DNA of 46,353 bases. Origin: Clostridia bacterium. GTDB taxonomy: Bacteria > Bacillota > Clostridia > Christensenellales > UBA1242. Location of the stretch: NCBI GenBank assembly GCA_017444895.1, contig JAFSVR010000025.1:1-46353 (forward strand), written 5' to 3'. The notes under the pieces were generated by a model. The model had not been told where the DNA came from. It saw only the letters and a program-made list of their open reading frames with translations, and did no database searches. Positions 8,733 through 18,848 of the stretch are shown in pieces; position 1 is the first letter of the stretch, and each line of letters begins with the position of its first letter. Both the position numbers and the translations under genes were made by a program.

Positions 8733-10253
8733 TTATAAGATTTCAATTTTCTTACCAAAATTCTTTTCAAAATCTTTTGAACACTCGCTTGCCTTTTCAA
8801 TTTCATAGGCATTATCACCAACAGCAATCGTCTTCATTATAACTGAATCACCAAGAACATCACAGTTAATATCAACAATAACATTGTTTTTAACCCTGTC
8901 AAATGATTCTGCAAGCCTGATTATGATTCCAAGCTTTTTAACGGCATTAATATCTTCTTCAGTTATAAGATCTCTGTATTTTATAAACTCACTCATTGGT
9001 ATGCTATCGCCCGTGTGGAGCGCCAAAGCGAACCCCGCAAGCACAAGCTCTCTATGTGTTACGCCATAAATCTCAGATCCAAGCAAAACACTAAAACCAT
9101 TTTTTGCATGCCCAATGTGGCCAATGCGTTCTCCACAGTCATGCATATAAGCCGCAAGACGCAAAATGCGCGTGTAGCCCCTTGGAAGTTTATGCAAAAC
9201 TCTCAGTTGTTTGAACAACAATAACGAAAGATTATAAACCTGCTCATTATGTTTGTCATTTGGCGCATCAAAGAAATGTGATTGCCCGATAATGCTATAC
9301 CCAAGAACATCACTTATTGGCTTTTCTTGGCAAGCAGAAATTTCTTCCTTAAACAATATGCCATGCTCAACGCCCCTGTTAGAAATAACAAACTTATCTC
9401 CTGCAAACTTTTCACTTACGCACATTGCAATTATCATTGACGCAACAAAAACATCTGCACGCTTCTCACCAACGCCTTTAATCTTCTTAGTTTTGTCAAT
9501 GCTGGCGCTTTTGATTTGCTCATAAACGCTTGCAATATCAGCAACATCAAGATTATAGTTGTTAACCAAATCAAGAGGATATTTTCTATACCTTTTTGCC
9601 ATTGTTGCAATGTCTTCAAACAATGCACCACTACCAATCAAGCCATAATCTTCTTCCATTGGTTCAATCCAAACAACCTTTGCAAGCTCTTCTCTAACCT
9701 TGTTGGCCATTTCTTTCAAGTCTGCTTCTTTGTTTTGCTCATTAAGATCATAAGCATCAGCCAAAGTTAGCGGCCCAAAACCAAGTGTTGTTTGGTTCAA
9801 AATGGAACGCCTGTTATAAACAACAATCCTAGTGTTTTCTTGATCTATATGGCATATAACACCCTTTGGAACATCAAACGAATTGATGATGGCATTATAT
9901 ATATAATTATTTTTTTCTTCATCTGAAAGAATTTCAAATCTGAAACCACACAAATTGAACACTTCATCAAAGAAACTATGCATATTCTTTGGTTTCTGAT
10001 TTTCGTTGAAAGATGCAACAGCAATAACCTTGTCAACTTCATAAAGTTCACAAATCTTTCTTAGGTTTTTGAGAGCTTTGATTGTTGCATCAATTTGACT
10101 TTTCTTCCAAAACATATCTGAATCTGGCTCAAGCAACAACTTAAGTTCTTCTTTTTCACTATCAGTTATTGCAAAATAATTGCCATCTTCAACCTTAACG
10201 ATACTGAGCTTTGCACTAAAACTATCAACTGAAATAACTGCAACTTTTTCCAA
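8733..10253 (-). CDS. Ppx/GppA-family protein with C-terminal HD-like domain (catalytic motifs degenerate)
   Basis: Overall layout, GSG, GVGEKRADVFV, GVEHGIL, H..QVYNLSLLLF.QL, AAYMHDCG, GVTHRE. Confidence 0.8.
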   Translation of the reverse strand: MEKVAVISVDSFSAKLSIVKVEDGNYFAITDSEKEELKLLLEPDSDMFWKKSQIDATIKALKNLRKICELYEVDKVIAVASFNENQKPKNMHSFFDEVFNLCGFRFEILSDEEKNNYIYNAIINSFDVPKGVICHIDQENTRIVVYNRRSILNQTTLGFGPLTLADAYDLNEQNKEADLKEMANKVREELAKVVWIEPMEEDYGLIGSGALFEDIATMAKRYRKYPLDLVNNYNLDVADIASVYEQIKSASIDKTKKIKGVGEKRADVFVASMIIAMCVSEKFAGDKFVISNRGVEHGILFKEEISACQEKPISDVLGYSIIGQSHFFDAPNDKHNEQVYNLSLLLFKQLRVLHKLPRGYTRILRLAAYMHDCGERIGHIGHAKNGFSVLLGSEIYGVTHRELVLAGFALALHTGDSIPMSEFIKYRDLITEEDINAVKKLGIIIRLAESFDRVKNNVIVDINCDVLGDSVIMKTIAVGDNAYEIEKASECSKDFEKNFGKKIEIL

Positions 10254-10367: not shown

Positions 10368-11165
10368 CTATATCCTTGTTATGCAATGATTTGGGCAAAC
10401 CTTAACACATTTATTGCAATGAATACACTTGTCTTCAATGACAACAGGAACACCATTTTCAATTTTAATTGCGCCTGCCGGGCACACTTCAACACAATGC
10501 ATACACTTAATGCATCCAACCTCACACCCAAAGCACTCACCAACAGTTTCTGTTTTGTTATTGCAAGCAACGGCAACTCTTTGAGTGTAAGGAATAAGTT
10601 TGATTAAGTTGTTTGGGCAAGCAAGAACACAGTTTCCGCACCCCATACAAACTTCTGGATCAATAATCGCAACACCCCTCTCTGTTATGCTGATTGCGCT
10701 GAAAGGACAAGCCTTTGCACAATCTCCACAACCAAGACAGGCGTATTCGCAAGATTTGCAACCGCTATGGAACTTATTAAGGCTTGCGCAAGATTGATCA
10801 CCGGTATATTCAAATGTCTTTGGGCATCTGCTTCCACCCTTACATTTAACAAAAGCAACCTGCTTCACATTTGCAATGGCATCGCCAACAAAAGAGCCAT
10901 CAATTTTAGCTCTGTTTGCAAAAGTGACAAATGGGCATTCTTCGGCCTTGCCCTTGTTTTCAACAATATCTTGAGCAAGTTTTTTGCAATACTCTCTTCC
11001 ACACGCCCCACAGTTTTCTCCTGGAAGCAAAGATGTAACCATGTCAATTGCGGAATTGCTTGGCTTTTGTCTTTTAATTAAAAATGAAACAAACAAAACA
11101 ACTAGCAAGGTAAAAACTGCAACACCCGCCAAAACGCCAACAACTATCCAAAAAGATTCTCCCAT
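10368..11165 (-). CDS. rnfB: RnfB-like membrane-anchored polyferredoxin
   Basis: N-terminal TM, LPGENCGACG...C...CP, four CxxCxxCxxxCP motifs. Confidence 0.9.
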   Translation of the reverse strand: MGESFWIVVGVLAGVAVFTLLVVLFVSFLIKRQKPSNSAIDMVTSLLPGENCGACGREYCKKLAQDIVENKGKAEECPFVTFANRAKIDGSFVGDAIANVKQVAFVKCKGGSRCPKTFEYTGDQSCASLNKFHSGCKSCEYACLGCGDCAKACPFSAISITERGVAIIDPEVCMGCGNCVLACPNNLIKLIPYTQRVAVACNNKTETVGECFGCEVGCIKCMHCVEVCPAGAIKIENGVPVVIEDKCIHCNKCVKVCPNHCITRI

Positions 11166-11176
11166 ATTTTTCTCCC

Positions 11177-11746
11177 TTAAATCAACACTTCAAAGCCGGC
11201 AAAAGCAAAACCTATGATTGCCATAAGAACCAAAAGCAAAGGCAAGCCCCTAAGGCTATTTGGAGCATATGGCCCATTGATTTTATAGTACGCCCCATAA
11301 ACAATAAAATTAACGATAACAAAGCCCAAGCTATAGAAAACAAGCGATAAAATATAATTAACAAAAACCTGGTTAACAATAGAATAAATCAGAACGCCAA
11401 CGCATGAAACAAACATAAACAAAAATGTATAACTTTTTTCATAGATATAAAACGCTTCTTTGTTGAGCGCCCTGAAAATGAAATATCCAAGAAAACTAAA
11501 CAACCCAACCAACGCAACAATTATCATGAGTTTTGCATATTGAACTGAATAATCTTCAAGAAGACTATAAATAAGATAGTAACCAACTCCTGAGCAAATA
11601 AGAATAAAACTAAACAAAAAGCCCATTAAAGCAGTGTATGGAAAACTTCTTTTATATGCTGAAAGCGTTGGAACTGCAAGCGCTGAAGACGTGCAAACAT
11701 TTGAAGTGAGCATACACGTCAATAAGAGAAACACAACATTACTCAC
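11177..11746 (-). CDS. rnfA: Divergent RnfA-like membrane subunit
   Basis: About six TM segments, PNSLRGLPLLLV..AIIGFAFAGF C-terminal signature, operon position; GTG start at 11746 after GGAGG. Confidence 0.7.
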   Translation of the reverse strand: MSNVVFLLLTCMLTSNVCTSSALAVPTLSAYKRSFPYTALMGFLFSFILICSGVGYYLIYSLLEDYSVQYAKLMIIVALVGLFSFLGYFIFRALNKEAFYIYEKSYTFLFMFVSCVGVLIYSIVNQVFVNYILSLVFYSLGFVIVNFIVYGAYYKINGPYAPNSLRGLPLLLVLMAIIGFAFAGFEVLI

Positions 11747-12473
11747 CTTTTGGCCCCTCCTCTTCTTCTTTCTTCTTTTCAATCAATTCATCTGCCCCAA
11801 AATTTTGCCTTTCACTTGCGTTAACCGCCTCTATTCTGCTTGCATTTCTTTCAATGTTAATTTTCATTTTATATTTTGAAACCAACATATCATATTGCAA
11901 CTTTTTATGCTTTCCCGCAAGATAGAAACTATTGCAGAATGCACAAATAACTGCAAGCAAAACGAGCGCACCAGGCGTGCTTCTCATAAATTCAAGGCCA
12001 CTAAAACCAAGGTCAATATTCCATAGCGTTCCGTGCGCCATAATTTCTCTCACACTTCCAAACAAGAGATAAATTCCAAGGAACAATGGAATTTGAATCA
12101 ATAGTCTATAGAAATAATGCGTGAGTTCGGTTTTAGGATTAACATATATAGTGTCAAGCGCCAAAATACCGGCAGTAACAAGGCAATAATCAATCTTTTC
12201 TCCGGCAGTTGAAAACAGCTTGTTTGGAAACAATGAATAGATATATTGAGCAATGCTTATGACTGCACAAGCAATAATCATAAACACAAAAAACCTCAAA
12301 TTTCTATCCGTCATCTTTTCAAGGATTGAAACAAATGAGATTGCAATTGCATATGCCAAACTGGCAACCAAACCCAAAAACACAATTTCGTTTAACGTTT
12401 GAGCCAGCGTTATAAGAGGCAAAACTGCAAGCGTTGAAATGAATACTGGATTAAGCCCTTCTTTATTGTTCAT
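11739..12473 (-). CDS. rnfE: Divergent RnfE-like membrane subunit with charged C-terminal extension
   Basis: NPVF, R...F.IIA, GSVREIMAHGTLW and PGALVLLA signatures; ATG 12473. Confidence 0.75.
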   Translation of the reverse strand: MNNKEGLNPVFISTLAVLPLITLAQTLNEIVFLGLVASLAYAIAISFVSILEKMTDRNLRFFVFMIIACAVISIAQYIYSLFPNKLFSTAGEKIDYCLVTAGILALDTIYVNPKTELTHYFYRLLIQIPLFLGIYLLFGSVREIMAHGTLWNIDLGFSGLEFMRSTPGALVLLAVICAFCNSFYLAGKHKKLQYDMLVSKYKMKINIERNASRIEAVNASERQNFGADELIEKKKEEEEGPKGE

Positions 12474-13404
12474 CTTGCACCCCCTTGCCAAAATACTTTG
12501 GATATATAACCCTATCTAGAAGAGGCGTGAACAAATTGGCAATAACAAGCGCATAAACAGCGCTCAAATCACCCATCAAATTCATCTTAACAAACACGCC
12601 ACACAAAACCCCAAAAATCAAGGAATATATAATATCCCCTAGCAAGCAGTTCGGGCTGGTTGTGAAATCAACCAACATAAAACAAGCAACAAATATAACA
12701 ATGTTGTTCATCAAAAATGGTGGAACTGCAACAATGTCAAAGCCTGTTAAACAAAAGGCTGTTAAAACATAAAAGCCAATTGCCATAATAGGAACACGAA
12801 TTTTAACAACTCCAAAAATCACAAGCAATACAAAGCCAACCAAAACAGCAACAAGCAGCACTGCTCCAACTGGTGCGGAAACTCTTTTAAGCAAAAGTTC
12901 AAGAGGATTGAAACCAACATAGTTTCCAGACTCCAATCTAACGCCAACTTCTGAAGCATATCCGCTTCCAATGGCCGTTTGCCAAGCACTGCTTCCTGCG
13001 CCAAAAATTGCACTGACTATTATTGCACTTGCCCCAGCTGGATTAACGATATTGTTGGCGTATCCACCAAACATCATTTTAACAACAACTATGGCAAAGA
13101 ACATTGCAATAATAGGAACATATAGCGGTGTTTTTGCCCCACATAAGCAAACAAACATAAGCGCCGTAACAACTGAAGACGCATTTTCTATTTTTAGTTT
13201 TTCATTAACAACAAAGCTATAAAACAATTCAAAGAAAAGCGCACTTGCAACAGAAATTAATGCAAGCAGAAAAATGTTTGTTCCAAGATAAATTGCCCCA
13301 ACTGTTATAAGGCCAATCAAAACAATAACCATCATATACAGCATGAAGCCCGCAGAGTTGTTTTTCTTTATAAAAGGCAAGGGGCCGGCTTTAAGCATCC
13401 TCAT
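12463..13404 (-). CDS. rnfD: Divergent RnfD-like membrane subunit
   Basis: SSVVTALM, FAIVVVKMMFGG..NNIVNPA, FMLVDFTTSP, NLFTPLLDR..PKYFG. Confidence 0.85.
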   Translation of the reverse strand: MRMLKAGPLPFIKKNNSAGFMLYMMVIVLIGLITVGAIYLGTNIFLLALISVASALFFELFYSFVVNEKLKIENASSVVTALMFVCLCGAKTPLYVPIIAMFFAIVVVKMMFGGYANNIVNPAGASAIIVSAIFGAGSSAWQTAIGSGYASEVGVRLESGNYVGFNPLELLLKRVSAPVGAVLLVAVLVGFVLLVIFGVVKIRVPIMAIGFYVLTAFCLTGFDIVAVPPFLMNNIVIFVACFMLVDFTTSPNCLLGDIIYSLIFGVLCGVFVKMNLMGDLSAVYALVIANLFTPLLDRVIYPKYFGKGVQDEQ

Positions 13405-14717
13405 TATAACGTTTCCCCCCTTTTGATTTTATCTTTCATATCACTAATTCGCTGAGCAAGATTACGTTTTGATGGGCAAACATAACTGCAAACCCCACAA
13501 TTAATGCAGGCTTCTGCCCCATATTTTTTACCCCTGCCATAGTCATGCTCAAGAGCATAAGTGTCAAGAGCCATTGGCTCCAATCTTGTTGGACAAACCG
13601 CTGAACATCTTCCACAGTTAATGCAGTCAATTTCATGGTCATCATATTTCTCACCAAATGCAACAATAGCATTTTTAGAAATCGGCAAATTTGTTTCAAG
13701 TTTTATCTGTGCAACACCACTCATTGCCCCGCCGATGGCAAAAGAGGCAAACTTTTCTTTATCCTTAATTCCAAACTGATCAAAAATGACGTTTGCATTA
13801 AGGCCATTTTTAACCCAGGCAAGCCCATTTTCCACAAAGTTATCTCCGCTGATTGTGTAAACCGTTGCAGTTGTTGGGGTGTTATTATAAACGGCGTTAT
13901 AGAAGTTATAACAAGCTTGCGCATTTTCAACAATCATACCCTTGCTTGCAATATCATCATCAATTTTAACCATTGTTTTTGTTAGCTTATAAGCTAATAA
14001 ATGTTCTTCATCAAAAGGATACTTTTTGCTTCCATGAACAAACGTGAACTTTTGAATATCCCCATCAAATCCAAGGAGGTGTTCCTTTATTGCGTTTGAT
14101 ATCACACCTAATTGATCAACGCCAACAAAAACAACCTTCTTGAAGTCAAGAAGTTTAGAAAACAAAACCGCACCGCCAGCAACTTCTCTGGCATAATTCC
14201 TTGCAATAGCGGAGTTTGAACAAACATAACCATCGCTATCATAAAGATTGATTATAAGTGTTTGAGGGTTGGCAACCCCTCTATTAATATACTTTGAATA
14301 TGTTGGATAATTCTTTCCAAAAGTGTCAATAGATCCACTCTCAACAAGCCTTCCAAACAAACTAACCCTTGTTTGTTTTTCAAGGGCCTTAAATTTGATA
14401 TAAACATCTTTTGCGCTTGGAACAATTGTTATTATCTTTGAATGTTGCCCAAGAGAATTCAGTTTATCTTCAATTTTAGAAATATTCCCGCTAACCGGGC
14501 TATAAATGAACGCCGAGGTTTTATCAACAGGTTTAGCAAGAACGCTTCCCGTCTTAACATTTTGACCAACGCTAACAATTGGCTCACTTTCACTCCCCAT
14601 TCCGGGTTTCAAAGCAATGCAAAATTCTTCTGAATTTCGCAATTCCAAAATGTCAGCATTTTTAAGGGCCTTTCGGCACCCCTTAATATAAACCCCGCGA
14701 CAACTCGCTAAAGCCAT
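13404..14717 (-). CDS. rnfC: Divergent RnfC-like subunit
   Basis: N-terminal barrel-sandwich (PIVSVGQNV..G..LA...SPVSG), SLBB region, CINCGRCSAVCP and CINCGVCSYVCPS. Confidence 0.85.
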   Translation of the reverse strand: MALASCRGVYIKGCRKALKNADILELRNSEEFCIALKPGMGSESEPIVSVGQNVKTGSVLAKPVDKTSAFIYSPVSGNISKIEDKLNSLGQHSKIITIVPSAKDVYIKFKALEKQTRVSLFGRLVESGSIDTFGKNYPTYSKYINRGVANPQTLIINLYDSDGYVCSNSAIARNYAREVAGGAVLFSKLLDFKKVVFVGVDQLGVISNAIKEHLLGFDGDIQKFTFVHGSKKYPFDEEHLLAYKLTKTMVKIDDDIASKGMIVENAQACYNFYNAVYNNTPTTATVYTISGDNFVENGLAWVKNGLNANVIFDQFGIKDKEKFASFAIGGAMSGVAQIKLETNLPISKNAIVAFGEKYDDHEIDCINCGRCSAVCPTRLEPMALDTYALEHDYGRGKKYGAEACINCGVCSYVCPSKRNLAQRISDMKDKIKRGETL

Positions 14718-14796
14718 ATTCTTTCCCCCACTCTAACAACTCATATTTTAGCAAAAATGGAAAAGATTGGCAACTAATTAAACCCTTATTATAATA

Positions 14797-15183
14797 TTAT
14801 TTATTTTTATTCTTCTTGGCTTGAGCAATAATAGTAGACAAAATAAGAAAACAACCAAAGCCAACAAGAAAGATCCCAAAGATGATTTGCAGGGTTTTTG
14901 GCTTGGCACGATCTGCAAAAAAAGCACCAAAACCACTAACAACAATCGCAGAAACATAAAGTGGCCAAATGCCAGAAAGTTTCAAAAGCTTCTTTTTTGC
15001 ATACACAATAACACACACCACCCCAATAACAACAAAAACAGCAAGATTAACTCCTTGCGCAACCTTTTGACCAACCCCCATCAAAATGGTAAGCAAAGGT
15101 ATCAAAAAAGTTCCGCCACCCATCCCCATTCCGGCGAGAACTCCACTAAGCAACCCAACCAACACAAAAAACATCCAATCCAT
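14797..15183 (-). CDS. Half-size TSUP (TauE/SafE) family membrane protein
   Basis: GVLAGMGMGGGTFLIPLL...QKVAQGVNL; four TM segments. Confidence 0.85.
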   Translation of the reverse strand: MDWMFFVLVGLLSGVLAGMGMGGGTFLIPLLTILMGVGQKVAQGVNLAVFVVIGVVCVIVYAKKKLLKLSGIWPLYVSAIVVSGFGAFFADRAKPKTLQIIFGIFLVGFGCFLILSTIIAQAKKNKNK

Positions 15184-15545
15184 TAAAATATAAGTTTAAC
15201 CCCCGAAAGAATGATAACAACGCCAAATATATAAACAATTATGTTGTTTTTGAGTTTGGATAATATAACTGTTCCCAAAACTGCGCCAACCAAAGACCCA
15301 ATCAACACAAACAATGAGATGCTAAGGCTGAAATGGCCCAATATAACATATATTATGCCAGACACAGCACAAAGCGGAAGAATAACAAAAATAGCGGTTG
15401 CGTGGGCTTCTTTGGGTTCCAATTTCAAAACATAGCGCAAAACAATAACGGTTAAGATTCCTCCACCTGCCCCCAGAAAGCCATTAACCGCCCCAATCAA
15501 AATCCCGCTCATAATAAGCACAATATAACGGCCTATCTTGTTCAT
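15183..15545 (-). CDS. Half-size TSUP (TauE/SafE) family membrane protein
   Basis: GAVNGFLGAGGG...AHATAIFVILPL; TAATG-coupled to its partner. Confidence 0.85.
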   Translation of the reverse strand: MNKIGRYIVLIMSGILIGAVNGFLGAGGGILTVIVLRYVLKLEPKEAHATAIFVILPLCAVSGIIYVILGHFSLSISLFVLIGSLVGAVLGTVILSKLKNNIIVYIFGVVIILSGVKLIF

Positions 15546-15677
15546 ATGTATATTTTGCGCCACAAGCCAAAAATCTATTAAATTTCTAACTAAAAACTTG
15601 ATTTTTATTTGATTTCCAAGTTATAATTATATATAATATTAAAAGTCAAAAATATCATATTAAAAGGAATGCGATAA

Positions 15678-18600
15678 ATGAAACACAAATCTCAAACACT
15701 AAAACAAAAAATTCTTTCAGTTATTTTAACTCTTGCCGTGGCTTTTGGCGCTTTTTTCAGTTTTTCATATGCCCTGGCAATGAACAAAACTTACGCTTTA
15801 TGGAACGCAACAACAAATTCAAGCGTTTTATCTCTATATGAGAAAGAAGCCCTTAATTTCCAAGGCACAAGTTCTTCTTGGATTCAATCAACAAACTCAA
15901 CAACGCCAAATGATTCGTTTGGGTTTAGTTCTCAGAACATTGTTTTAACAGATCCAACCATTCAATCATTAACAGGCGTAACAACAAGCAGTTCAGGCAA
16001 TCTTCTTGCTGATGAAACCGAAGAAATGAGCGTTCTTGCAATAATTGCACAGAATGCTTTAACAAAAGAAACAATAAGTGAAACATTAACTGATATCTAC
16101 TTCTATTATAGTTTGCCATCTGCAATTTCACTTAATAGCAATAGGTATTATGCTCTTTCTTATTATGTTCTGACTTCCGCAACAGGAACTGTTGATGCAA
16201 GCGTAAGACTTGGGGGATCTCTTGATTTCAACTCAACCCCACTCAACACCAACAACACATGGGAGTTGCACTATATCTTTTTTGCAACAGCAACAACCGG
16301 TTCCCCATCAATGAACATTTCCCTTCAACTTGGCAACAAAACAACAATTGATCCAAACAATTATGCCGATATGGAAAATAAGATTAATGGTTATATCCTT
16401 TTTGATAACCTTTCAGTTTATGAACTTTCTGAATATGAATTTTGCGCTCATAAAATTGGCGATACAACCGTTAACTCTAACTATGAGATATATGATGATC
16501 GTGAGATGATTGCCCTTCCAAATTCAAACGCAACAAACTTCAACGAAATGAATGTTTATGAGCATTTTGAAGAAGAAAAAGGTGTTGACGGCGGAACATT
16601 TGATAAAACTTCTGCTGAATATCTCAGCGCTTATTGGTATTACTACACCGCCGAAAACCTTAAAACCGCCATCGCTAAAAACTACCTTAACGCATATAAC
16701 GCAACCGATGACGGATCTGGCGACAAGACTTATTTTGATTATAGCATTGAAACCGAAAACACCATCACCGCTCTTGGTGGTGGCAACAACTTCACAGAAA
16801 ACAACAAGGTTTTGAAGGTTGTTAACAACAGTGCCATCTATAACCTTGGGTTTATCAGCAAAAACACTTTCACCATTGAACAACACAAACTCTATCGTGT
16901 TTCTGTTTGGGTAAGATCAACAAACCGCAATGCAAATGCAACGTTGATTGTTTTGGGCAAAATCCCAACAGGAAATGATGAAGACGGAACAACCTATTCA
17001 AGAACATATAACAACTCAGCATTCAGTGAGGGCATTTCTTCATATGATAATTGGGTTGAACTTGCAATCTATGTTCGAGGCAACGCTTTCAGAAATCTCA
17101 ACGCTCAAATTGGCTTGCTTGCTGGCCCATCTTCAACAATATATTATGATAACATTAAAGTTCAAGAGGTTGTTTCTAGCGACTATAATAGTTCTGCCTA
17201 TAACCTCGATCTTTCTCCATCAGCAACGCTTCAATCAACGTCAATATCCAATGGATTCTTCAACTATGTAACTATTTCTAAAACAAGTGAAGACACTTAT
17301 CCCCTTGTTCCACAAAGTTGGAAAATTTCAAACACTAATTATGATGAAACAAAAGTTAAATCCGGCGTCGTTGCAACCTCAGCAACCGGCTACACAGATG
17401 CAGTAAAAACATTGCTCGGAAATGTAAACAACCCTATTCCATCTGGGCAAAAGGTTAACGTTCTTGCAATTCATATTCCAAGCAATGCAAAAGTTGATGC
17501 GCTTGAAGATGGCAGTTTCTATTATGAAACTGAAAACTCATTTAGCGTTCCAACATCTGGAGTTGTTAAGGTTTCATTTGATGTGTTCACGGCAAAAACC
17601 GAATCAACACCAGCAAATTTTGTTGGGGACTTAGTTGCAAGCCTAACCACTGGCAACAAGGTTGTTTCTGATTTTATAAGAACATACACAATTCAAGGAA
17701 CTGGAAATTGGCAAACATACACCTTCTATGTTCGTCTTGGAGAAACAAGCCGTTCATTCAAACTTCGTCTTGGCGTTGAAAATGCGCAAGGAACAGTTTT
17801 CTTCAGAAACGTTAAGTACACTTCTGTTAACTCAACGACACAAGCCGGCAAAACAATAACCGCAAACGAACAATTTGAAAAACTTATTGAAGAGAAAAAC
17901 TCTTTTGCCCTTCAAGATGCTAACAATATTCGTCTGGTTGATTATGTTACCGATGCCGGATTCTACCATACAACCAATGCCCTAACTTCTGGCGCATACA
18001 CCAGCAATAACTACACAATAACTGAGGTTAAAGAAGAAAACGCAGTTGTTACGGGTTCTGTTTATATTGCCCCAACAGACACAACCATAACCCTTAAAAA
18101 CGCTGAAGATCAAGACGTTGTTATAGACGCCGCAACCCTAGCAAGGCCTAACGCAAGAACCGGGTATGCACTTGTTATCTTTAATGCTGGTGAATATTAT
18201 TCAACAGCAAAATCTAGTTCAAGTTATGCCCTTCTTGCAAACACATATTATCGTGTTTCTGTTTGGGTTAAAACCGACGCCTCAGCAGCCGGAAAGCTCA
18301 ATATCAAACTTAATGGACTAGACACCGAATTCACCGCCGTTGACACCTCTTCTGAAACCGAAAACAACGGATATGTTGAATACTTTGCACTTGTTAAAAC
18401 TGGAACTTCTAACCTAACCGGTGTTAACCTTGAATTCACTCTTGGAACAACTGATGCAAGAACTTCTGGCTATGCAATTGTGAGTGATATCAATTTTGAA
18501 GTTGTTGAAGAAAGCGCTTATACAACAGAGGTTGAAGCCGTTAAATCTTCAAACAACACCAAGGCCGCAGTTAAGGACTACACCCCAGCTGAAAGCACTA

Positions 18601-18848
18601 GCGAAAGCACAACAGCAGACTCAGATGAAGAAAATAACGAGAACAAAAACGCTGAACAAAATCAAACATTGATGATCTTCTTCCTAGTGTTCTCTTCACT
18701 TCTCCTTGTTGGAGCAACAGTGTTTGCAATTGTTGCAGTTGCTGTTAAGAAAATGCCAAAGAACAAAACCGTTGTTGGAACGAACAATGCTCAAGTTGCA
18801 CCAAGAACAACCACGTCAAAAAAAGATAAAAAAGATGGATTTGTTTAA
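15678..18848 (+). CDS. Large cell-surface protein with repeated CBM/galactose-binding-like beta-sandwich modules
   Basis: Signal peptide; repeated Y(R/A)(V/L)S.(W/Y)V...W..(Y/H)..(F/Y)...(F/Y)DN(I/L).V units; S/T/E linker; C-terminal TM plus basic tail. Confidence 0.7.
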   Translation: MKHKSQTLKQKILSVILTLAVAFGAFFSFSYALAMNKTYALWNATTNSSVLSLYEKEALNFQGTSSSWIQSTNSTTPNDSFGFSSQNIVLTDPTIQSLTGVTTSSSGNLLADETEEMSVLAIIAQNALTKETISETLTDIYFYYSLPSAISLNSNRYYALSYYVLTSATGTVDASVRLGGSLDFNSTPLNTNNTWELHYIFFATATTGSPSMNISLQLGNKTTIDPNNYADMENKINGYILFDNLSVYELSEYEFCAHKIGDTTVNSNYEIYDDREMIALPNSNATNFNEMNVYEHFEEEKGVDGGTFDKTSAEYLSAYWYYYTAENLKTAIAKNYLNAYNATDDGSGDKTYFDYSIETENTITALGGGNNFTENNKVLKVVNNSAIYNLGFISKNTFTIEQHKLYRVSVWVRSTNRNANATLIVLGKIPTGNDEDGTTYSRTYNNSAFSEGISSYDNWVELAIYVRGNAFRNLNAQIGLLAGPSSTIYYDNIKVQEVVSSDYNSSAYNLDLSPSATLQSTSISNGFFNYVTISKTSEDTYPLVPQSWKISNTNYDETKVKSGVVATSATGYTDAVKTLLGNVNNPIPSGQKVNVLAIHIPSNAKVDALEDGSFYYETENSFSVPTSGVVKVSFDVFTAKTESTPANFVGDLVASLTTGNKVVSDFIRTYTIQGTGNWQTYTFYVRLGETSRSFKLRLGVENAQGTVFFRNVKYTSVNSTTQAGKTITANEQFEKLIEEKNSFALQDANNIRLVDYVTDAGFYHTTNALTSGAYTSNNYTITEVKEENAVVTGSVYIAPTDTTITLKNAEDQDVVIDAATLARPNARTGYALVIFNAGEYYSTAKSSSSYALLANTYYRVSVWVKTDASAAGKLNIKLNGLDTEFTAVDTSSETENNGYVEYFALVKTGTSNLTGVNLEFTLGTTDARTSGYAIVSDINFEVVEESAYTTEVEAVKSSNNTKAAVKDYTPAESTSESTTADSDEENNENKNAEQNQTLMIFFLVFSSLLLVGATVFAIVAVAVKKMPKNKTVVGTNNAQVAPRTTTSKKDKKDGFV

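Follow-up and report, generated by a model that had tools for sequence, protein, structure and literature searches.

A divergent rnfCDEAB locus without rnfG and without recognisable FMN sites in a Clostridia genome

The DNA analysed here, called the window, is a whole stretch of 46,353 nt from a Clostridia bacterium. Its source genome, G000, is a metagenome-assembled genome (MAG) with 53 contigs that total 836 kb and a completeness of 96.8%. The minus strand of the window carries, from 10368 to 14717, five intact open reading frames (ORFs) in the order rnfC-D-E-A-B. Homologues of RnfC, RnfD, RnfE, RnfA and RnfB are encoded together, the grouping by which an Rnf locus is recognised. Rnf and Nqr are ancient redox-driven Na+/H+ pumps of anaerobes. 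To our knowledge, every current mechanism couples ion movement to electrons through the [2Fe-2S] cluster of RnfA and RnfE, the flavin mononucleotide (FMN) of RnfG and the FMN of RnfD. The locus in the window has no rnfG, its RnfD-like and RnfC-like proteins have lost the motifs that hold or presumably hold FMN, and most of the [2Fe-2S] cysteines are gone, while the [4Fe-4S] motifs of RnfB and RnfC are kept.

The five genes are tightly packed. The genes rnfC and rnfD share base 13404, rnfD and rnfE overlap by 29 nt, rnfE and rnfA overlap by 44 nt, and 11 nt separate rnfA from rnfB. Since rnfD overlaps rnfE, there is no room for rnfG at its usual place. These coordinates agree with an earlier note on this DNA, which had described five closely spaced, intact ORFs in this order with no space for rnfG. 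In Pfam, the RnfC-like protein matches RnfC_N, Complex1_51K and Fer4, the RnfD-like protein NQR2_RnfD_RnfE (146 bits), the RnfE-like protein Rnf-Nqr (40.5 bits) and the RnfB-like protein FeS and Fer4. The RnfA-like protein reaches only 22.2 bits with Rnf-Nqr, slightly below the cut-off of 23.8, and aligns over its full length with RnfA of Acetobacterium woodii (9eri_A) and Clostridium tetanomorphum (7zc6_A) at E 5e-6. Four subunits score below their NCBIfam cut-offs: RnfC with 220 against 246 (TIGR01945), RnfD with 86 against 207, RnfE with 36 against 213 and RnfA with 20 against 229. Only RnfB passes (TIGR01944, 75.2 against a cut-off of 68.7), and the proteins are therefore divergent.

Table 1. 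Features of the rnf locus and its surroundings in the window
Feature	Position	Strand	Basis
RnfC-like subunit, 437 aa	13404-14717	-	ORF call, Pfam, NCBIfam, PDB alignment, AF2 model
RnfD-like membrane subunit, 313 aa	12463-13404	-	ORF call, Pfam, PDB alignment
RnfE-like membrane subunit, 250 aa	11739-12491	-	ORF call, Pfam, PDB alignment
RnfA-like membrane subunit, 201 aa from TTG start	11177-11782	-	ORF call, sub-cut-off Pfam, PDB alignment
RnfB-like membrane-anchored polyferredoxin, 265 aa	10368-11165	-	ORF call, Pfam, NCBIfam, PDB alignment
Promoter-like TTGCCA, 17 nt, TG-TAAAAT	14745-14773	-	consensus match only
Pair of half-length TauE/SafE (TSUP) permease genes, 128 and 126 aa, adjacent to rnfC on its upstream side	14797-15563	-	synteny
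Ppx/GppA-family gene, 506 aa, directly downstream of rnfB	8733-10253	-	synteny
1056-aa ORF	15678-18848	+	

Motifs were read from alignments to solved chains of C. tetanomorphum (7zc6), A. woodii (9eri) and Azotobacter vinelandii (8ahx) and to Vibrio cholerae NqrB. Conservation was then counted over the loci from related genomes described below. The alignments of the RnfB and RnfC cysteines and of the RnfD columns do not include G001, where a contig end interrupts rnfD, and the subunit alignments do not include the truncated locus L086. In the RnfC-like protein, the canonical GMGGATFPT reads DTFGKNYPT and NAAECEPY reads NLYDSDGY, the same replacements that had been claimed from the sequence alone. 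The barrel-sandwich N-domain, the Nuo51-like domain and both [4Fe-4S] motifs are kept. The GxGGxxFP and ECEP loops, which from the name of the Pfam domain and the organisation of Nuo51-type proteins we take to be the FMN/NADH site, are missing from 15/15 variants. Four residues at or near the former flavin loops, D131 (replacing Gly), D162 (replacing Glu), Y143 and C269, are invariant in all 15, a constancy seen in the variant clade only, and fill the former pocket. An AlphaFold2 (AF2) model of the protein has a predicted local distance difference test score of 91.7. Its template-modelling (TM) score is 0.86-0.90 against RnfC chains, ~0.70 against full-length NqrA and 0.55 against NqrA crystal fragments.

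In the RnfD-like protein, the flavinylation motif TTATPL is replaced by GYASEV, the Glu of GE(T/V)S by Ala and YPEG by MGDL, and all three losses had been named in the earlier note. PMC11889175 gives T156 of A. woodii RnfD as the covalent FMN site and N123 and D249 as riboflavin ligands. Scored on aligned columns, the T156 position holds S, L, E, R, Y, V, G, Q or A in the 15 variants and x-T-P-L in 6/6 canonical sequences. The equivalents of the riboflavin ligands are present in G000 as N121 and D246. At the level of sequence, the Asn is found in 13/15 variants and the Asp in 14/15, and both are found in 6/6 canonical sequences. The core of the protein is also kept (VK..FGG..NPA and MxxD.xTSP, including the NPA Asn and the MxxD Asp), as are the residues at the gate positions F338, F342 and D346 of NqrB, taken from section 18 of PMC12174285. 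The complex had been called flavin-less; the FMN sites are indeed lost, but the riboflavin-ligand positions are not. Riboflavin requires neither a kinase nor ApbE. The term would thus hold for FMN only, and riboflavin is possibly retained.

In A. woodii, the membrane [2Fe-2S] cluster, AE1, is held by four cysteines according to PMC11889175: C25 and C113 in RnfA, C25 and C108 in RnfE. In G000, both RnfE cysteines are lost: GMCP reads AVLP, as had been noticed, and the column of VVNC, reported as missing, reads LVTA. The first RnfA cysteine, in transmembrane helix 1 (TM1), is lost as well, with AVPT for GICP. This part of the RnfA claim stood, but the second cysteine, in TM4 (the C113 equivalent), is kept in G000 as FVSC in place of TTNC. 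It is kept there alone, in one of 15 aligned RnfA sequences. G000 therefore retains only the C113 equivalent of RnfA, and three of the four cysteines are gone. Among the variants, the counts are 0/15 for RnfA C25 (aligned column), 1/15 for RnfA C113, 0/16 for RnfE C108 and 7/16 for RnfE C25. RnfE E115 and RnfA N112, which belong to the Na+ path of A. woodii, are not conserved in the variant alignment; RnfE R67 is present as R or K in most variants. All 16 variant RnfE sequences carry a charged C-terminal extension of ~60 aa (KYKMKI...) that is specific to the clade. Two other cysteines, in RnfA "NVC" and RnfE "YC", occur in 8/8 genomes of the genus and were considered as ligands of a substitute cluster. 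This candidate was rejected, as they are absent outside the genus (0/7 RnfA and 0/8 RnfE variants).

The Fe-S sites of RnfB and RnfC are fully preserved. All 24 cysteines of RnfB, which make up six [4Fe-4S] sites, and all 8 of RnfC are invariant across 15 FMN-less and 6 canonical sequences. This bears out the claim that the RnfB clusters and both RnfC [4Fe-4S] motifs are intact. RnfB has a single anchoring helix. It also has an extra cysteine, C146, in 15/15 variants and 0/6 canonical sequences, which converts an atypical cluster motif to the standard CxxCxxCxxxCP.

The same arrangement is found well beyond G000. The seven other genomes of its genus have the order C-D-E-A-B, with rnfD abutting rnfE and the same motif losses, although in one of them the locus falls on two contigs. 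The architecture and the losses recur in G018, which belongs to a different genus of the family. Scanning species-representative genomes with a profile of the FMN-less RnfC added eight loci (L082-L089), all from MAGs whose titles read Clostridia or Lachnospiraceae bacterium. The seven complete ones (L082-L085 and L087-L089) again run C-D-E-A-B with no gap for rnfG, an RnfC without the Gly motif and, by alignment, no RnfE TM4 cysteine and neither RnfA cysteine; L086 is cut after rnfD. An RnfC tree was built with 42 rows, of which 17 came from relatives' loci, 14 from the related-locus search and 11 from 120 listed proteins. The 19 FMN-less sequences form one clade with a Shimodaira-Hasegawa-like approximate likelihood ratio support of 99, and identity within the clade goes down to about 32%. 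The genomes that carry the variant are very small and bear the label of uncultured Clostridia. A long-branch metagenomic protein, P0023, falls outside it. RnfC of G016 is near-canonical (GLSGSGFP) and groups with that of the canonical G024. RnfG, ApbE, the RnfD site, the RnfC motifs and the RnfA/E ligands have been lost together across the clade, in keeping with the coordinated loss of the relay that had been proposed.

In the order as a whole, RnfC is found at E <= 1e-30 in 221/401 genomes (G000 included). The GxGGxxFP motif is kept in 29/29 of the best RnfC loci after the window's own among the 400 other genomes, so the variant is not typical of the order. With the RnfE-like protein, only 54 matches at E <= 1e-3 were found among 1.84 billion cluster representatives (50% identity). 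When sorted by regular expression, 32 of these lack both cysteine motifs, 17 look canonical and the other 5 are partial. Some canonical or near-canonical relatives have layouts of their own. In G032 (L036, G032:C1:21047-22681), rnfD abuts rnfE, and upstream of rnfC there is an ORF of 634 aa that contains five FMN_bind domains, which fits the multi-flavinylated RnfG reported for Christensenellales in PMC8238504. In G016, the near-canonical Rnf includes a 308-aa ORF (L035:931-1857) that joins RnfA, in frame, with the N-terminal Fe-S domain of RnfB. In L091, L092, L093 and L095, from Borkfalkia- and Christensenellaceae-labelled MAGs, the RnfD ORFs are 508-841 aa long, which suggests RnfD fused to an extra C-terminal part.

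The genes that should accompany a canonical Rnf were searched for. No match to FMN_bind (PF04205, the RnfG domain) was found in G000, the seven other genus genomes, G018 or the five further variant genomes, and no ApbE was found in G000 or in 5/5 further variant genomes. G000 has no second rnf or nqr: there is one RnfD-family gene, and the only two Rnf-Nqr genes are those of the operon. Nine ORFs that canonical relatives carry between rnfD and rnfE (RnfG and its neighbours) were used as tblastn queries against G000 and gave nothing below E 0.1. The earlier note had proposed looking for rnfG, apbE and a second canonical rnf in the genome, and none of the three was found. Within the genus, ApbE appears in 1/8 genomes, only in G002, as a stretch of 93 residues at the end of a contig 3.3 kb long (L162, G002:C96:1-3340). 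The first kb of this contig has a GC content of 27% and the second 49%, compared to ~37% in the window, and the ApbE-like stretch continues in frame from an N-terminal stretch that resembles a FeoB-type GTPase by eye. The G002 fragment is probably a chimera or a contaminant.

These data bear on the possibility that the Rnf is canonical after all and that rnfG and apbE lie in sequence missing from the MAG. The 53 contigs and 96.8% completeness of G000 and the ApbE-like stretch of G002 are what this explanation can draw on. It is nevertheless extremely improbable. The overlap of rnfD with rnfE and the missing flavinylation, FMN and cluster residues concern genes that are present, the same picture is seen in eight genus genomes, G018 and 5/5 further genomes, and the G002 stretch is doubtful for the reasons just given.

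Selection on the five genes was estimated as the ratio of nonsynonymous to synonymous substitution rates (dN/dS) by the Nei-Gojobori method with our own script. Two genome pairs with unsaturated dS were used, G006/G002 and G004/G001; more distant pairs, with dS > 1 or saturated, were not relied on. The respective values were 0.09 and 0.05 for rnfC, 0.07 and 0.05 for rnfD, 0.08 and 0.05 for rnfE, 0.17 and 0.06 for rnfA, and 0.04 and 0.03 for rnfB. The gene for pyruvate:ferredoxin oxidoreductase (PFOR), used as a control for G004/G001 only, gave 0.04. No stops or frameshifts were found in any complete locus (7 genus loci, G018 and 7 further loci). Mean identity was also compared between subunits, leaving G026, with its truncated ORF call, out of the canonical RnfA values. 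Among six canonical relatives it was 0.67 for RnfA, 0.60 for RnfE, 0.52 for RnfD and 0.45 for both RnfC and RnfB. Among five deep variant branches it was 0.24, 0.27, 0.34, 0.35 and 0.42 for A, E, D, C and B, respectively, and within the genus 0.55, 0.56, 0.48, 0.53 and 0.68. In the deep variant branches RnfB is therefore the most conserved subunit and RnfA and RnfE are the least, the reverse of the canonical relatives.

A decaying Rnf relic on its way to loss could account for the many catalytic motifs that are gone, and most of the family has indeed lost the complex: 14/24 other family genomes have no RnfD match. The dN/dS values of 0.03-0.17, like that of PFOR, the intact reading frames, the deep monophyletic clade with its low RnfC identities and the new invariant residues that have arisen all argue against a relic, which we regard as very improbable. 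The earlier statement that this is not random decay is upheld by the dN/dS values, the intact ORFs and the monophyly of the variant RnfC. The pattern is one of remodelling, not erosion.

Riboflavin kinase (PF01687) was found in 0/25 family genomes, G000 included, and in 16/16 genomes of the order's other families. Neither FAD (flavin adenine dinucleotide) synthetase nor flavodoxin was found in G000. FAD-type enzymes are present, with six Pyr_redox_2 matches and MurB, and the cells must therefore obtain preformed FMN or FAD. The gene content thus implies that these flavin nucleotides are taken up. Flavin scarcity was considered as the sole cause of the variant, and this idea is weakened by G016 and G024, which belong to the same kinase-less family and keep ApbE and a near-canonical Rnf.

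For energy metabolism, PFOR is present in 8/8 genus genomes and [FeFe] hydrogenase in 6/8; G004 and G001 have no hydrogenase match and keep the operon. The catalytic subunit of the rotary (F/V) ATPase (ATP-synt_ab, over cut-off) was found in 0/8 genus genomes, in none of G016, G018 and G024, and in 0/5 further variant genomes. It is present in four family genomes without Rnf and in 16/16 genomes of the order's other families. No H+-translocating pyrophosphatase (H+-PPase) was found in G000, and a search for the ATP/ADP translocase TLC gave no match among control genomes. By genus, the family has 4 with Rnf only, 4 with the ATPase only, 10 with neither and none with both. Mutual exclusion of Rnf and ATPase was considered on this basis and rejected, as the distribution is not significant (hypergeometric P ~0.33, hand arithmetic).

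The remaining parts can be compared with the electron path of A. woodii, which PMC11889175 describes as a U-shaped route from ferredoxin through RnfB, AE1, the FMN of RnfG, the FMN of RnfD, riboflavin and RnfC to nicotinamide adenine dinucleotide (NAD+). AE1, the RnfG FMN, the RnfD FMN and the RnfC FMN are gone, and therefore a path of this type, cut in at least three places, and coupling to NAD(H) would be unavailable. The same source places the closest clusters of RnfB and RnfC of A. woodii > 30 Å apart, so no direct transfer from RnfB to RnfC is expected. The locus very probably encodes a real, selected five-subunit descendant of Rnf that no longer performs the canonical reaction, that is, ferredoxin:NAD+ oxidoreduction with the accepted pumping. 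By its sequence, it is classed as a derivative of Rnf and not as a functional member, because it lacks four defining features of Rnf: RnfG, the covalent FMN of RnfD, the flavin site of RnfC and the full set of AE1 ligands.

What this descendant does is less certain. What would remain is a six-cluster, ferredoxin-facing chain on RnfA/E, a two-cluster protein, possibly with riboflavin, on RnfD, and a pair of membrane modules built like transporters. According to PMC12174285 (section 18), the fold of RnfD is like that of Amt and urea channels, and the RnfA/E dimer resembles alternating-access transporters. Ferredoxin reduced by PFOR could still charge RnfB, whose redox state would then act on the transporter-like membrane modules RnfD and RnfA/E. 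The redox state of RnfC, possibly with riboflavin, could separately act on the same modules. On these analogies, our preferred though tentative reading is that the complex may serve as an ion conduit or transporter that is linked to ferredoxin and gated by redox state, and not as a pump driven by redox reactions. For the overall reading, including function, of an Fe-S-only complex derived from Rnf with riboflavin possibly retained, our confidence is evenly divided. It blends the high confidence in the identity and in the lost canonical reaction with the tentative standing of the gating.

Several of the same observations would also suit a complex that is still a primary ion pump, driven by ferredoxin through a novel Fe-S/riboflavin-only route or through an unrecognised partner that replaces RnfG and the flavins. 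The RnfD riboflavin ligands and NqrB gate residues are kept, R67 of RnfE is mostly R or K, and all five genes are under strong purifying selection. The genus, G018 and the five further genomes have no rotary ATPase, in contrast to 16/16 genomes of the order's other families, and G000 has no H+-PPase. A pump would have to work, however, without RnfG, the RnfD FMN site and three to four of the four AE1 ligands, across the RnfB-RnfC distance given for A. woodii, and with no evident acceptor for RnfC in the absence of FMN. Neither of the Na+-path residues, RnfE E115 or RnfA N112, is conserved, RnfA and RnfE are the least constrained subunits, and ten genera of the same family lack both Rnf and ATPase, so neither is indispensable there. 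We therefore consider a pump of this kind unlikely.

The conservation of RnfB and of all 32 cluster cysteines of RnfB and RnfC could instead point to a membrane-tethered Fe-S hub with no ion function, in which RnfD, RnfE and RnfA are an anchor and RnfB and RnfC shuttle electrons between ferredoxin and soluble partners of the PFOR or [FeFe] hydrogenase type. PFOR and hydrogenase are present, and the membrane subunits are under weaker constraint than in canonical Rnf. This reading seems improbable to us, though. It would leave ~760 residues of polytopic membrane protein, with dN/dS of 0.05-0.17, kept despite extreme genome reduction when RnfB already has its own anchoring helix. The RnfD core motifs are also retained, and G004 and G001 keep the operon without a hydrogenase match.

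Some points weigh against a redox-gated, Fe-S-only complex. The gating is drawn from fold analogies, and our computations fit gating, pumping and an electron hub alike. The lack of a rotary ATPase in the variant genomes fits a complex that still energises the membrane, and the riboflavin-ligand and NqrB gate positions that are kept would fit it as well. The RnfE TM1 cysteine survives in 7/16 variant sequences. The assignment of function to the lost RnfC motifs may be affected by its reliance on a domain name and on likeness to Nuo51-type proteins. All the genomes are MAGs, and even at 96.8% completeness, as in G000, the absence of a gene is never fully proven.

Compared with canonical Rnf (9eri, 7zc6, 8ahx), the five subunits are homologous over their full length, the gene order C-D-(G)-E-A-B is the same apart from rnfG, and the six RnfB and two RnfC [4Fe-4S] sites, the RnfC fold and the RnfD core with its riboflavin ligands are shared. 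The variant differs in lacking RnfG, ApbE, the RnfD flavinylation Thr, the RnfC Gly-rich and ECEP motifs and 3-4 of the four [2Fe-2S] cysteines, in the charged tail of RnfE, in its inverted order of conservation and in the NCBIfam scores of C, D, E and A. Na+-NQR offers a precedent in the superfamily for the loss of cofactors without loss of function: NqrA, as PMC12174285 states, is a homologue of RnfC without any redox cofactor and yet an essential subunit. The variant RnfC, in contrast to NqrA, keeps two [4Fe-4S] sites and is structurally closer to RnfC than to full-length NqrA. The input subunit is RnfB-like and not NqrF, for which no separate search was made. Whereas NQR keeps NqrC, covalent FMNs and the NqrD/E cluster, the variant has none of these.

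Reduced versions of the Rnf/Nqr core have been described before. The partial NQR/RNF-like clusters of Meheust et al. 2021 (PMC8238504) are defined by ApbE, FMN-binding proteins and an RnfD-NqrF fusion, and like the variant they are thought to do something other than the full U-loop. They have kept the flavin half, however, and in the variant it is the Fe-S half that survives and the flavinylated one that is missing. Our literature search found no description of an RnfG-less, FMN-less Rnf; the supplementary gene-cluster tables of PMC8238504, which lay outside the search, might list such clusters. In the passage in which it was met, "rnfCDEAB" is a plain operon name. As far as the search reached, an Rnf variant without RnfG and the FMN sites is previously undescribed.

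The neighbourhood of the operon was also examined. The 79-bp gap upstream of rnfC holds a promoter-like site and a strong ribosome-binding site, GGGGGAAAG, followed by the rnfC ATG. The promoter TTGCCA-17-TAAAAT that had been proposed was located at 14773-14745, but such matches are not enriched: the region has 22, compared to 17.4 +/- 5.3 expected from shuffled sequence, which is not above chance. A look-up of sequencing runs brought up DNA contig runs that contain part of the stretch and no RNA run. The pair of TauE half-genes is found in 14/14 variant loci and the Ppx/GppA gene in 12/14. Like synteny is carried by the canonical rnf operons of relatives (L033-L035, L091, L092 and L095), and Ppx/GppA lies downstream of rnfB in L093 and L097. 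The TauE/rnf/Ppx synteny is therefore ancestral and not specific to the variant, and the gene neighbourhood was rejected as a clue to function. On the other strand, the 1056-aa ORF has hydrophobic N- and C-terminal segments, a Ser/Thr/Asn-rich body and no Pfam match, and by its composition it looks like a surface protein.

A diverse and strongly selected clade, with at least 19 RnfC sequences, has dropped exactly the transmembrane relay and kept the rest, which contradicts current models. It is a natural dissection of the complex and useful for the debate over whether ions pass through RnfD or RnfA/E. It is conceivable, though doubtful, that these gut Clostridia, with neither ATP synthase nor riboflavin kinase, have no recognisable primary ion-motive machine other than this complex, which would then either move ions by a novel Fe-S/riboflavin coupling or be a pump whose two transporter-like modules were turned into a ferredoxin-gated ion pathway. 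If either were true, this deconstructed Rnf would separate the ion path from the electron loop and could settle the question of RnfD versus RnfA/E. Where "Rnf present" is scored in metabolic reconstructions of such gut and rumen MAGs, the energy conservation assigned to it is probably wrong. In combination with the lack of riboflavin kinase and of a rotary ATPase, the variant points to an unusual and probably dependent bioenergetic lifestyle in this family of sub-1.3-Mb Clostridia.

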